A stretch of 64,000 bases of DNA from Harriotta raleighana (Eukaryota): the NCBI GenBank assembly GCA_050575255.1, contig JBNZDD010013618.1:2669016-2733015 (forward strand), written 5' to 3'. Below, piece after piece: positions 190 to 14,176 of the stretch. The notes below the pieces were generated by a model. That model was not told the DNA's origin. It saw only the letters and a list, made by a program, of their open reading frames with translations, and did no database searches. The position numbers and the translations under genes are program-made. Position 1 is the first letter of the stretch. Every line of letters begins with the position of its first letter.

Positions 190-3100
190 ATGCTCCCTTT
201 CTGCCAAAGACCTAAATCGGAACTACCGACATCCAAAGCAGGATCTCTTCCCCACTGTGTGTCACACAAAGAAAATGATAGAGGAATTTCAGAATGACCA
301 TTATGTAAGTTATGGCTGAATAACTTCCCTTAGACTACAAAAACAGTCACTATACTTGAGAATACTGATATTACTGGAACTCACGTTGACTTTTTAAAAT
401 GTTATAGGCACTTTATAACAATAACATACAATCATTTAGTTTCCCGTAAACTAAATTTCCCATAAAATGTAATGTCTCAAAGAACTTTACAATATACTGT
501 ATAATCAATCAGAAAGAACCAAATGTTGTATAAATAAATTGACTCAACTGTGCCATCAAAATACCACCAGAATATCTGTGAAGTGTCAAATGAAGTAGGG
601 TGGAGGATAGTGCTTTTGATCAGGGTAAGATGATGTTAAGATTTATTTTATACTTGCTTGGATGCAGTTGAAAGCATAAATATAACAAATACACAGTTAC
701 CACATTTCACAGTAAAACCTTATGAAGACGTTTGAGACATCTCGATGATGTGATAAGACACTATATTAAATGCAAGGATTATTATCACTATTGTGTGACA
801 GACAATACACCAATATCTTCCTTTTCTGCTTTGCCACAGATCCTCTTGTACTGTGACCTGCATGGCCACAGTCGGAAACCAAATGCTTTCATGTATGGCT
901 GCAGCCAAGTAGGATTCACGGATCCATCTGGAGCAGTGGACTACCTCAGACAGAGGATATTTCCATGGTTGATCTCTGAGAGGGTAACTCCAATTGAATT
1001 TTATTTCATATTATTGGATTTTATTAACCTAACTATCCACTTTCCTGTAACTTTCTTGCTACTGTTCATTTGTATTCAGCTGCAATGCAGGCTAGCAATT
1101 CTGCCACCTTTTTGCACCAATGCTCTCGAAACGTAATTGTCAAGACACACAAAGGCAACACACTGAGAACTGATTGTGAAAGGGAGTGTTGATCCACAAG
1201 ATGCCATCTTAAATCTGATTGATTTTAAAAAAAATGTATTTAATTTTTAATTCTGCTCTTGTTGTGTCTATCTTATACAACATTGTGTAGTTGCTGACCT
1301 CCCTGCCATTAGAAATAATTTTACATTTCAAATAATTTAGGTTTAAATAATGTAAGTTAATATAATATGTAAAATGCAAGTTGCTCTGTATTTAATCTAC
1401 TGTATATGCTTCTCATTTTGTGTTGCAAGGATCCAGACATGTTTGACTGGAACAGCTGCAAGTTTCATATCCATAAATGTAAGGAATCAACAGGACGGGT
1501 GGTGATGCATAGACAACTGGGTCTAAATGACTCGTTCACCTTAGAGGCCTCATTCTCAGGGGCAGTCAATGAACAGTAAGACAACTGCTATATTTCTTCC
1601 AGCACATGTATTTATTTTAATCATGTTTTTTTAAGAAGAGAATCATAGAAATTTACAGCTCAGAAGGAAGCCATTCAAACCATTGAGTCTGCACCAGCTC
1701 CCACTAACTCCCACTATTCTCAAACCACTTTAAGCCCTTATTCTTGGGTCCTCTATCCAAGCCTCTATATACTGTACCTGACTACTTCCCTCTTGATACT
1801 CATAATGGATTTGCCTCTATTACCTTACACAGCAGGACATTTCACATCCTAACAGCTCGCGGGTGAAAGAAAACTCCAAACATTTCCTTTCGTTCTTGTT
1901 ATGACTATCTTATAACTACATCCTACAGTTCCTGTCACCCCTGCCAGTGGAAATACCTTCTCCCTTTTTACTTTGTCAAAATCCCTCATATTGTCAACAA
2001 CATTAACAAGAATATGAACTTATATAGCTCCCTCCATGCCGGGTGGCATCTCAGAGCACTAAAAAGCGCTGTCGCAATACAACAGCAGCTTATTGTGCCA
2101 GGCTGTCCTTTCATGAACTTCAATTAGTTCACTTAAACTTGCCATCTTCACTGCATATTATGAATGAAGAGACACATTGGCAGGCATCAACCAACCCAGG
2201 CCATTGGTGAATTGTCTGGAAATTAGCTCGAGGAGTATTGGAAGCATCTTTCCGTACCTGGCTTTTTAGCTGAGGAATGGTGAGGGATATTGTTATGCTA
2301 ACTGCTAGCTCTAAATAAACATTGTTAAATAATTCAGAGTTTTTTGTTTCAAAATCTCAGTCTTTCAGCATAATGTGATGAATGTGCTTATATAACATTA
2401 ATGTGTCCGGTGGAACTTTAATAACCAACAATCTGATATTCTGGCCTCCGCAAGGTCCTTTAGATATGTAGTGAAGGAGTGAAGTATAGAGAAATTAGAC
2501 AACTATTAAAGCCTCTGATAATGTTGCTATGCCACCGACTAACTTTGGGCATTAAATTAAATTGTATATGGAATTTTTTCAAGTACTGTACTTGAAATGA
2601 GCTTGGGTCTCCCAATTACTNTATTCTGGCCTCCGCAAGGTCCTTTAGATATGTAGTGAAGGAGATATATAGATATATAGAGAAATTAGACAACTATTAA
2701 AGCCTCTGATAATGTTGCTATGACACCGACTAACTTTGGGCATTAAATTAAATTGTATATAGAATTTTTTCAAGTACTGTACTTGAAATGAGCTTGGGTC
2801 TCCCAATTACTCTGGTCTGAAATCAAGGCTGTCCCAGATCACAATAGTGTGACAGTCTGCTGGGCTCTTGCAGTCTTCCCAGGCTCGATTTGATAGTCCC
2901 TCTTGTGTAGAAGGTAAATTTACATGTAATATTTGAATTATTACATCAAATCTCTTAAATTATCACATCAACTCTCTTAAAATATCACATCAAATCTCTT
3001 AAAATATCACGTCAATTACAAAACGTTGCTCACCTTCATAGTATCTGTAAGTTCTGCATTCTTAGAGGATAATTCCGAAAGAATGCAGGGATTTGGAAGA

Positions 3101-12100: not shown

Positions 12101-14176
12101 GTCTAACTTTCCAAAAGACTCCTTTGATTTATCAATAGATATTAACCCTGGAGTAAAGGGAGAGGTGGGAGAAACTTCCAAATTTTTACCTCAAAAGATA
12201 AAATGGGTTGTGTAAAGATTACACCTGACCATAGATGAGTAAATTGACTTTTTACATTCATCTCTTTCTTAGGAGATTACAATAACAATCTAAATGTTTT
12301 TCAGCGAACTGGAGAGATGAAAAATGCTGAAACAGTGAAGCAATTCAATTTTCCAGTAAGTATCAACAGATTCTCACAAGGTTGATATCAAGCAGATTAC
12401 TTTTGCCCCATTTACTGATTGTTAGCTTGTCGTGTTGAAACTAGCTATCCCCCAGTTCCAATCACATTTCTCTAATGGTTCAAAAATAGATTCTAATTGA
12501 TCACTTATCAGAGATTACACAGCAACTGTTTTGAATGGTCTGAACAGTGTTTCTTAATTAACCAGCGAATGTTTTACTTTCAGTTAGTGGGAAAGAATGA
12601 ACATTCCAGTCAGATTCCAGTTATAAATCATGCCTTCTTCTTTCACCCTGGCCGAAAAGCTCAATGGGGATTAAAGGAAGATTCCACAGAAAAAAGGAGA
12701 GAAAAAGAATCCTCACAATGTAGAAGCAATTATAGAAACACTGGTAAGTTGTCAATCGCTTCTGCACCATTCAAATGCTTCAGTTACTTCTGAGGGGCTT
12801 TTTGAGTAGTTAAATGTATAATGTACAATGAAGTACTTTGTCAGGATGGTTGGTGGTACCTCTAGCCTCTGAGATGTAAGGCTGTGGGTTCAAACCCCTT
12901 GGGAGGACTTTGAGCTCACAATCTAGGCTGACACTCTGAGGCAGTGCTTGGGATTCTCTGTGGTTCAGTGTTAGAGGTGCCATCCTTCAGATGAGCTGCT
13001 AAATTGAGGTTCTGTCTGCATGTTCAGGATGCAAGGAATATTATTACTGGATTACTATAATGTGAAAACATTTATAGAGGTTACATTATATGCAGCGATT
13101 CTCATTTCTTCAACTTTTTTTTCTGTGGTAGAGTTCTATCGTCTTTTTAACTTCACGGTCCTTCCATAGCCTCGCCCCACCCTACCTCTCCAACCTCCTA
13201 ATCCCCTACTAACCTGTCCGCTGCCTCCGCTCGGCAGGCTCCGGCCTGGTCCACGTCCCCTGACCCACCCGCCCCACCATTGGTGGGCGAGCATTCAGCC
13301 ATTCTGCCCCTGGGAATTCCATCCCACAGTCCCTATGCTTCGCCCCCTCCCTGCTCTCCTTCAAGTCCCACCTCAAGAGCCACAATCTTCGACCCCAAAT
13401 CCCACCTTTCCCTCCACCCTCCCCATCCCTGACCAGAGCTTGGGTCTGAAACAATGACTGTCCAGCGCCTTGGGACATCCTCCTGACGTGAAAGGCGCTA
13501 TACAAGTGTAATTTTGTTGTTGTTGTTAAGTTTAAAGAATGTTAACAGCTATTTAAATAATAGGTGTCCATTCAGGGTGCTGTTGAGAAAGTTAATTTCT
13601 AGAGGCTCCAGACTACCACCAGCAGGAAGTTAATATCATTGCAGCCAGAATGTAATAACACGATCGTATACTGTACTGTCCATAATTGTTTATTTGTGAC
13701 TAAATAATTTCCTAATAATTATAGATTAACTTAATTCTAAATAATTTGAAAAATTCTTTCAATAAATGTATAAATCTCAGATGTTACTCATTTAAAACCA
13801 AACATACACTAATTTAATTTTTACAATCTTTTCATTTTATGGATTTATGCCTGTCTCCTTATTATACCATTTTTACTGTTAAACAATGCATTTGTCCATA
13901 TCTTTTGGGATCGTAAAGATTTGAATAAGAAATATGAGCTTCATCCATCTTGACCATCAATTTGGTTTCTCTTCATAGTAGCCTCTCCAAATCTCAAAAT
14001 ATCATTGTCTATTTATATTCCCATTTTCGTATCATGCACTGTATTTTGTTCAAAGTGCCTGTAAAAATAGATCAAAAAATGGTTTTTGCTCCACAGATGC
14101 CACATTTGGATTGGAGGACGACTTGCCTGGCAATAGCTCGAAGAGAAACGGAATAATGGCAAATAATGAAAGATAA
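190..14176 (+). CDS. Cytosolic carboxypeptidase (CCP/AGBL family, M14D tubulin deglutamylase, CCP1-3-like); 5'-truncated by the window edge, multi-exon
   Basis: Phase-compatible GT-AG exons: 190-304 (RCSLSAKDLNRNYRHP), 840-983 (ILLYCDLHGHSRKPNAFMYGC), 1430-1575 (DPDMFDWNSCKFHIHKCKESTGRVVMHRQLGLNDSFTLEASFSG), 3653-3751 (HHFNIQDYMSIGEKFCKGIMDY), 5549-5703, 6957-7057, 8237-8376, 9624-9774, 10636-10755, 12305-12355, 12584-12743, 14097-14176 (TAA). DLNR, DxHGHS and FTLE are the M14 substrate-binding, third Zn ligand and catalytic Glu motifs. Exons after about 10.8 kb are less certain. No symbol is given because orthology to AGBL2, AGBL3 or AGTPBP1 is unclear. Confidence 0.9.
1640..2000 (-). mobile_element. 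CR1-clade LINE 3' end fragment
   Basis: AATCATAGAAATTTACAGCTCAGAAGGAAGCCATTC is the reverse of a CR1-type 3' tail. A related tail lies at about 8495-8590. Confidence 0.55.
2940..3015. repeat. 21-bp tandem repeat, about 3.5 copies
   Basis: ATCACATCAAATCTCTTAAAA-like unit. Confidence 0.8.
9312..9551 (+). mobile_element. tRNA-derived SINE with an internal deletion
   Basis: GTAGGTCAGTGGTTAGAGCA, GGGTTCAATTCG, tail AATGCAAGGATTATT. Many 5'-truncated tails of this family also occur (about 700-790, 7480-7635, 8800-8930, 15475-15645, 18345-18540, 18955-19060, 20900-21100, 60795-60850). Confidence 0.7.
9844..10406. mobile_element. Non-autonomous Tc1/mariner-pogo (Tigger-like) DNA transposon (MITE)
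   Basis: Terminal inverted repeats CAGTTAACACTTGTCGA / TCGACGAGAGTTAACTG, flanked by TA at 9842-9843 and 10407-10408. CpG-rich interior; no transposase ORF. Confidence 0.85.
12850..13030 (+). mobile_element. Deu-domain SINE (AmnSINE1/SacSINE1-like) remnant
   Basis: GTGGGTTCAAACCCC..AATCTAGGCTGACACT..AGAGGTGCCATCCTTCAGATGAG..TAAATTGAGG..TGTCTGC resembles the Deu domain as recalled. Confidence 0.6.

Follow-up and report, generated by a model that had tools for sequence, protein, structure and literature searches.

Among the cytosolic carboxypeptidases (CCPs), CCP2 (AGBL2) and CCP3 (AGBL3) are the closest described relatives of the gene considered here. Both are reported to shorten polyglutamate chains and to make delta2-tubulin (PMC4230590), and CCP2 has been localized at cilia and basal bodies (PMC7970040; PMC4055263). 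Further relatives are CCP1 (AGTPBP1) and CCP4 (AGBL1), as well as CCP5 (AGBL5), the branch-point deglutamylase with solved structures (PDB 8v3m-8v3s). Here we analyze another CCP gene, found in the chimaera Harriotta raleighana, the 3’ exons of which lie in a 64,000-nt stretch of genomic DNA (G000:C13618:2669016-2733015, termed the window). Our preferred reading, to which we assign a probability of roughly 0.8, is that the gene is intact and belongs to a lineage of its own, which has no name and is the sister group of animal CCP2/3. On the same reading, the lineage likely goes back to a duplication in the animal stem, its product is likely a zinc-dependent enzyme that deglutamylates tubulin, and teleosts and tetrapods have likely lost it.

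With CCP2/3, the window gene has in common the PF18027 plus PF00246 plan, all catalytic and acid-specificity residues and one intron, and invertebrate CCP2/3 carry a weaker form of its tail motif. The two sister clades have probably been apart since before sponges, and identity in the catalytic region is ~45%; the window lineage combines KE[SA]T with a spacing of 16 residues, whereas CCP2/3 combine KEG[TC] with 15. The large single catalytic exon of CCP2/3 (four introns, one of them in common) corresponds to six exons in the window gene, which sits at another locus and belongs to a lineage with N- and C-terminal helices of its own. CCP1/4 have the same catalytic residues, KE[SA]T, the 16-residue spacing and one intron in common with it, characters that are probably ancestral, but the two do not form one clade (p 0.028) and seven of the eight catalytic-region introns of CCP1/4 are absent from the window gene. 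CCP5 provides the closest solved structure by sequence (expectation value, E, 1.5e-37) and by fold (E 1.4e-35), yet is a distant outgroup, and its insertion before the KEG motif is absent from the window protein. Database entries of the same lineage include XP_007891223.1 of Callorhinchus milii (‘CCP2-like’), LOC117411093 of the sterlet, LOC118404481 of amphioxus, LOC580601 of the purple sea urchin and LOC5514750 of Nematostella. All are automatic predictions labelled ‘CCP2-like’, ‘CCP3’, ‘CCP4-like’ or ‘uncharacterized’, and no name that we saw marks them as one subfamily.

Gene Model and Active Site

The gene model was guided by shark proteins and included contig stretches upstream of the window, its junctions being predicted from the genomic sequence. 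It comprises 24 exons on the + strand (contig positions 2611400-2683191), with exons 1-12 upstream on the same contig (G000:C13618:2611400-2667805) and exons 13-24 at window positions 190-14176. GT-AG borders flank 23/23 predicted introns, and the frame stays open over 3450 bases, corresponding to 1149 amino acids, with no internal stop or frameshift before the stop codon at 14174-14176. A protein of the shark Heptranchias (P0006) matches the model with 62% identity over 1178 columns, so that the model is not a product of chance; identity to a Callorhinchus milii protein is 93% over 293 residues. Similarity support from the shark guides is weaker for exons 22-24 than for the catalytic exons. 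The exons within the window are:

190..304, + strand: exon 13, completing the codon of the Arg127 equivalent; DLNRN motif with the equivalents of Asn144/Arg145 at 215-220, predicted holders of the substrate’s terminal carboxylate
840..983, + strand: exon 14, CDLHGHSRK with the third zinc-ligand His at 861-863; basic S1 region
1430..1575, + strand: exon 15, KCKESTGR with the equivalents of Lys250 and Arg255 (Arg at 1496-1498); FTLE with the Glu270 equivalent at 1544-1546
3653..3751, + strand: exon 16, final helix of the catalytic domain
5549..5703, + strand: exon 17, where the folded core ends and an acidic linker begins
6957..7057, + strand: exon 18, linker
8237..8376, + strand: exon 19, lineage-specific CxxLLxxL-type helix, predicted with high confidence in a shark orthologue
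9624..9774, + strand: exon 20, Ser/acidic patch, then a basic patch
10636..10755, + strand: exon 21, FVNRY...GIP...ER motif, almost invariant from sponge to chimaera
12305..12355, + strand: exon 22, acceptor picked for frame and fit to shark proteins
12584..12743, + strand: exon 23, poorly conserved tail
14097..14176, + strand: exon 24, carrying the stop codon

Position names in exon 15 follow PMC4230590 and were mapped by motif. The original prediction, made from the letters of the window, had claimed an intact M14D catalytic half over clean exons. This holds, given the open frame, the GT-AG introns and the complete set of catalytic residues, and the motifs that it named are all found on the + strand where it had placed them, with starts at 191 (CSLS), 209 (DLNR), 843 (LLYCD), 861 (HGHS), 954 (RIFP), 1475 (KCKE), 1481 (KEST), 1490 (TGRV), 1535 (FTLE) and 3702 (KFC).

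In the 1149-residue protein, the zinc ligands align at His613, Glu616 and His709, the equivalents of Arg127, Asn144 and Arg145, acting as carbonyl and carboxylate clamps, at Arg663, Asn672 and Arg673, and the catalytic base (Glu270 equivalent) at Glu788; the basic S1’ pocket, mapped by motif and alignment, consists of Arg772 (Arg255 equivalent) and Lys767 (Lys/Arg250 equivalent). These roles are in part common to M14 enzymes in general. The window protein keeps all catalytic and acid-specificity positions, and so do the lineage members in an alignment of 62 rows, except that the Macrostomum row breaks off before the catalytic Glu. Arg255 and Lys/Arg250 have been reported as determinants of acid specificity in a study that also reported CCP2/CCP3 activity and described FESGNL, W.Y[FY] and YPY[TS]Y as motifs of the CCP N-terminal domain (PMC4230590). 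The window protein has YESGNL at 418, WYYF, and YPYSY at 547, followed by the M14 domain; PF18027 and PF00246 were detected in 5/5 orthologues scanned, and PF18027 also at the Harriotta locus. The long CCP5-type loop ahead of the KEG motif is missing in the alignment. As a stand-in for the Harriotta protein, the fold was computed for the orthologue of the shark Stegostoma (P0011; predicted template modelling score 0.74), whose best PDB matches were human CCP5 (E 1.4e-35, 27% identity) and bacterial CCPs; a lamprey orthologue modelled from a 6-row alignment had a mean predicted local distance difference test score (pLDDT) of 32.6 and was not used. N-terminal motifs, active site, S1’ pocket and predicted fold are those of an M14D cytosolic carboxypeptidase, as which we class the predicted product.

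One might ask if the gene is a pseudogene or silent relic in Harriotta, where its exons are predicted from genomic sequence and where an early stop relative to the shark orthologues leaves a tail ~40 amino acids shorter than that of P0006. The 3450 bases in 24 exons lacking any stop or frameshift speak against this, as does the strong constraint on the catalytic region (337/425 residues identical to a shark versus 158/325 in the N-terminus), so that we regard a relic as very improbable.

Two irregularities of the underlying models may be mentioned. In intron 15 (window 2445-2812), a lone N at 2621 is flanked on both sides by copies of the same ~180 bases, likely an assembly overlap. The shark models P0007 and P0009 have 7 extra residues between GNY and RC in the active-site loop; the insertion coincides with intron 12 and likely reflects an alternative acceptor in these models.

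Phylogenetic Position

Relatives were gathered by three word-index searches and one profile search; the protein lists hold the best 120 of 132, of 3311 and of 4235 hits among clustered, annotated proteins, and names stem from 30 cluster look-ups. Lineage members were found in a homoscleromorph sponge, sea anemones, an acoel, flatworms, a rotifer, a leech, nemerteans and molluscs, and, among deuterostomes, in echinoderms, hemichordates, amphioxus, tunicates, lampreys, sharks, Callorhinchus and sterlet. The idea of a vertebrate lineage retained in this fish was correct as to its being distinct, but not as to its range, which is animal-wide from sponges onward.

The lineage is separate from the other CCPs sampled in every tree. 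The 62-, 38- and 31-row sets are hand-picked subsets of a large tree of 173 rows, from which P0210 was left out owing to its short coverage; no tree includes a CCP6 row. In the 38-row tree (LG+C20+F+G4, 426 columns), a single clade (100/100) unites the 15 members sampled, its inner order largely tracking animal phylogeny, and a separate one (98/95) unites the 15 animal CCP2/3 rows. The 31-row tree, rooted on the genome’s own CCP5 as a distant outgroup, places the lineage as sister to animal CCP2/3 (100/98), with two choanoflagellate CCPs just outside the pair. In approximately unbiased (AU) tests, grouping of the vertebrate members with vertebrate CCP2/3 was rejected at p 1e-60, that of all members with CCP1/4 at p 0.028 (two presumed CCP1/4 rows, both from the Harriotta genome), and that of the choanoflagellates with CCP2/3 alone at p 0.008. 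Four species (Heterodontus, Ptychodera, Adineta and Schistosoma) have both a window-type gene and a separate CCP2/3, and the catalytic region is identical at 232/425 positions to a sea-anemone member versus 191/425 to a shark CCP2. Duplication in the animal stem, before sponges split off, likely gave rise to the lineage and CCP2/3; this we infer rather than observe, because the CCP5 branch is long and simpler models root differently. Site-heterogeneous trees were given more weight than FastTree and quick trees, and the other rooting was retained as a rival.

The same genome has CCP1-, 2-, 3-, 4-, 5- and 6-like loci besides the window gene, and thus loci like AGTPBP1 and AGBL1-5, the names CCP1, CCP4 and CCP6 being presumptive. 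In the tree, contig C13671 groups with proteins named CCP3 and a ‘CCP2-like’ protein of sawfish, and C13441 with proteins named CCP2; C13698 resembles human CCP5. We take the pair C13653+C13558 and C13315 to be CCP1 and CCP4, the CCP1-like gene being split between the ends of C13558 and C13653 with exons that join in frame, and an exon on C13666, the one exon from which CCP6 is known here, presumably is CCP6-like. An eighth CCP gene on C13726 was set aside as a likely partial duplicate or retro-fragment: the sequence at G000:C13726:474403-474522 (L044) is by eye ~94% like the C13666 exon, has no GT donor and runs into a stop.

Database labels of the orthologues (‘cytosolic carboxypeptidase 2-like’, ‘3’, ‘4-like’) would suit a relocated or divergent version of AGBL2, AGBL3, AGBL1 or AGTPBP1, or else a third gene produced by the vertebrate genome duplications. 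Such an origin is hardly credible, as all four genes have their own loci in the same genome, the AU tests (p 1e-60 and 0.028) oppose it and already refute it for AGBL2/3, invertebrate orthologues predate vertebrates, and intron patterns differ. The original prediction had set the gene apart from AGBL2, AGBL3, AGBL1 and AGTPBP1, and had named nesting inside a known CCP clade, in a genome with no other copy of that gene, as the outcome that would speak for a translocated orthologue. Trees and AU tests agree with the separation, and the protein nests in none of these clades.

Among other relatives, Nna1 of insects groups with CCP2/3. The beetle Lamprigera contributed high-scoring proteins that are of a tandem multi-domain CCP2/3 type and were rejected as lineage members. 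P0121, P0123, P0161, P0175 and P0338 contain 2-4 tandem CCP domains, the named ones stemming from fireflies (Lamprigera, Aquatica); those of their domains that were tested group with insect CCP2/3, and the proteins may be fused models of tandem genes.

Introns, Sequence Characters and Tail Motifs

Of nine catalytic-region introns in the window gene, one is common to CCP2/3 and one to CCP1/4. CCP2 and CCP3 share 4/4 positions in this region, CCP1 and CCP4 8/8, so that the intron comparison proposed along with the original prediction yields a pattern different from both pairs. Sixteen residues lead from the S1’ Arg (Arg255) to the catalytic Glu (Glu270) in 19 of the 20 members scored in the 62-row alignment, in 14/14 choanoflagellate and unnamed outgroup rows and in 2/2 CCP1/4, versus 15 residues in 21 of 23 scored CCP2/3. 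The 16-residue spacing appears to be ancestral because members, outgroup rows and CCP1/4 have it in common. KE[SA]T is present in 20/21 members versus 1/24 CCP2/3, 22/24 of the latter having KEG[TC]; CSLS (5/21 members, 8/24 CCP2/3) is not diagnostic. The seemingly CCP1-like characters are probably for the most part ancestral states that the lineage kept and CCP2/3 changed. The motifs had initially been read as a mosaic of CCP1 and CCP2 features, a reading that was not borne out since these characters are common to choanoflagellate and unnamed outgroup rows; a mosaic or recombination origin was rejected on the basis of the 62-row character comparison.

Outside the catalytic domain, motif profiles built from lineage members, with scoring that favours those members, detected an N-terminal helix in 11/26 lineage rows and a C-terminal helix with an acidic Ser patch (exon 19) in 18/26, each in 0/118 other rows. 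The FVNRY...GIP...ER motif of exon 21 was detected in 20/26 lineage rows and 11/118 others, weaker forms occurring in choanoflagellate CCPs and invertebrate CCP2/3. It matched no Pfam family, and querying the Atlas with residues 930-1075 of P0006, the conserved tail, yielded no usable match. In the Stegostoma model, tail helices at 708-719 and 807-840 appear as confident islands amid disorder.

Predicted Function

The conserved residues and the likeness to CCP2/CCP3 make a zinc-dependent tubulin deglutamylase the likely product, and the chemistry of the lineage is most likely familiar. His613, Glu616 and His709 would bind zinc, Asn672/Arg673 and Arg663 would hold the substrate by its terminal carboxylate and its scissile carbonyl, Arg772 together with Lys767 would select an acidic last residue, and Glu788 would activate water. 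Terminal glutamates would thereby be removed singly, shortening polyglutamate side chains and making delta2-tubulin from detyrosinated alpha-tubulin. The two conserved tail helices may attach to the core or to a partner and thereby determine the site of action. The likeliest sites might be cilia, basal bodies or sperm flagella; we suggest this tentatively, given the placement of CCP2 at such sites and the survival of the lineage in animals with abundant motile cilia. Its overlap with CCP2/3 could have allowed repeated loss of the lineage.

The chief rival holds that this ancient lineage has another job, be it on non-tubulin substrates with acidic tails, with a preference for aspartate or branch points, or as a weak enzyme serving as a scaffold. 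Its long stem branch (0.42 changes per column in the 38-row tree) and its own motifs outside the catalytic domain would fit, and so would the replacement of the Cys in YCDLHGH by Gly in 5/8 shark proteins of the printed alignments and by Val in 1/8. CCP3 is reported to remove aspartate as well (PMC4230590), and non-tubulin substrates of CCPs have been described (PMC7970040). We nevertheless consider another job unlikely, since all catalytic and S1/S1’ positions are as in CCP1-4, the CCP5-type loop is absent, and all six mammalian members are described as deglutamylases (PMC7970040).

Gene Neighbourhood and Inferred Loss

Upstream of the CCP gene lie clusterin (Pfam) and a SCARA3-like gene (Atlas score 0.95; collagen exon). 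A CCDC25-like gene, ESCO2, a kinase and an SRCR/collagen gene, the last presumably SCARA5, follow downstream, which puts the CCP gene between the SCARA3-like and CCDC25-like genes. Exons of three of these neighbours are:

23236..23523, - strand: CCDC25-like exon, tail to tail with the CCP gene, no Pfam match; from sequence resemblance we take this gene to be CCDC25
48589..48918, + strand: ESCO1/2 acetyltransferase exon (PF13880, E 3e-11)
55104..55427, - strand: protein kinase exon (PF00069, E 1e-6, below the curated cut-off); presumably PBK, by sequence resemblance

A SCARA3-like coiled-coil exon is found twice (L014:3883-5046, L014:6048-6758), the second copy being partial and beside an assembly gap, likely an assembly duplication. 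At window 59930-60757, between two large gaps, a repeat surrounds an N at 60240, likely an assembly overlap.

In human, the order is CLU, SCARA3, CCDC25 ... SCARA5, SCARA3 and CCDC25 being 56.5 kb apart, and the gene table of that article, which may be selective, names no AGBL gene in the SCARA3-CCDC25 block (PMC9169259). A cattle list gives SCARA5, PBK, ESCO2, CCDC25 and SCARA3 (PMC4355494). Taken together, the human and cattle orders indicate that the gene block is conserved apart from the CCP gene. Among the matches listed (best 120 of 132, 3311 and 4235), vertebrate members come from lampreys, sharks, Callorhinchus and sterlet only, with no ray, gar, bichir, teleost, coelacanth, lungfish or tetrapod member, and those arthropod rows that could be named fall in CCP2/3. 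The lineage was likely lost in mammals, teleosts, tetrapods and most bony fishes, and reports of four CCPs in zebrafish (PMC4055263) and six in mammals (PMC13279043) fit its absence there. No skate or ray is among the orthologues listed, as opposed to nine shark species plus a chimaera; a separate loss in batoids is possible.

Weighing the Evidence

Several points weigh against the overall reading given above. Absence was judged from annotated protein lists, which would miss unannotated, broken or fast-evolving copies, rather than from genome searches, and the lamprey member is itself absent from one of the three best-120 lists. In P0122 and P0193, two models from the sterlet, the sole bony fish with a member among the matches listed, 12 residues bearing the FESGNL motif are missing, and P0193 is without catalytic exons as well, so this copy may be undergoing decay or have been modelled wrongly. 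The enzyme role of the lineage is a prediction from gene sequences, and its ciliary role a suggestion drawn only from CCP2 localization and from which taxa keep the gene. Rejection of the CCP1/4 alternative reaches p 0.028 only and involves just two CCP1/4 rows. For its root, the tree depends on a single CCP5 row that is partial and long-branched (3.8), and FastTree as well as quick LG+G4 trees attach CCP5 at the base of or inside the lineage.

This last placement would be expected if the lineage were far older than animals, an early eukaryotic branch outside CCP1-4 that persisted in animals only and whose adjacency to CCP2/3 is a rooting effect. We consider so early an origin improbable: in the site-heterogeneous tree, the root falls among CCP1/4 and unnamed outgroup rows, and choanoflagellates come out as sister to animals; all named rows of the clade are animal, eight representative rows having stayed unnamed; and an intron and the tail motif are in common with CCP2/3. 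A lineage that is sister to animal CCP2/3 thus remains our preferred reading.

Implications for the CCP Family

The window gene represents an unnamed ancient subfamily of a known enzyme family; its likely loss in mammals and most bony fishes would account for the missing name. Our literature search, which did not cover a 2013 FASEB J family phylogeny that may show invertebrate members, found no paper naming a seventh CCP or this clade, and ‘CCP7’ combined with ‘cytosolic carboxypeptidase’ gave 0 matches. A survey of vertebrate M14 duplicates started from orthologues of human genes and reported no CCP as frequently duplicated; its design would likely miss the window lineage (PMC9925722). In an early-animal paralogy screen, a term search of the main text returned no mention of the CCP family (PMC7003098).

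It is tempting to go further and suppose that the first animals had five CCP lineages, not four, the fifth being an animal invention for motile cilia and sperm flagella that was aimed by its own tail helices. On this view it would have persisted for >600 million years in sponges, cnidarians, spiralians, echinoderms, invertebrate chordates, lampreys and sharks, and independent losses would have removed it from arthropods/nematodes, from teleosts and from tetrapods, and so from every standard model organism. We offer this scenario as a possible but doubtful one. Already the lineage itself has consequences for the field. The list of six CCP erasers derives from mammals, and a lineage as old as animals adds one more, changing reconstructions of the tubulin code in the ancestral animal and vertebrate. 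It occurs in classic models for cilia and sperm, namely sea urchin, Ciona, amphioxus, Nematostella and flatworms. In invertebrates and sharks, the label ‘CCP2-like’ covers two genes that probably split before sponges, and single knock-downs in these animals may therefore be masked or misassigned.

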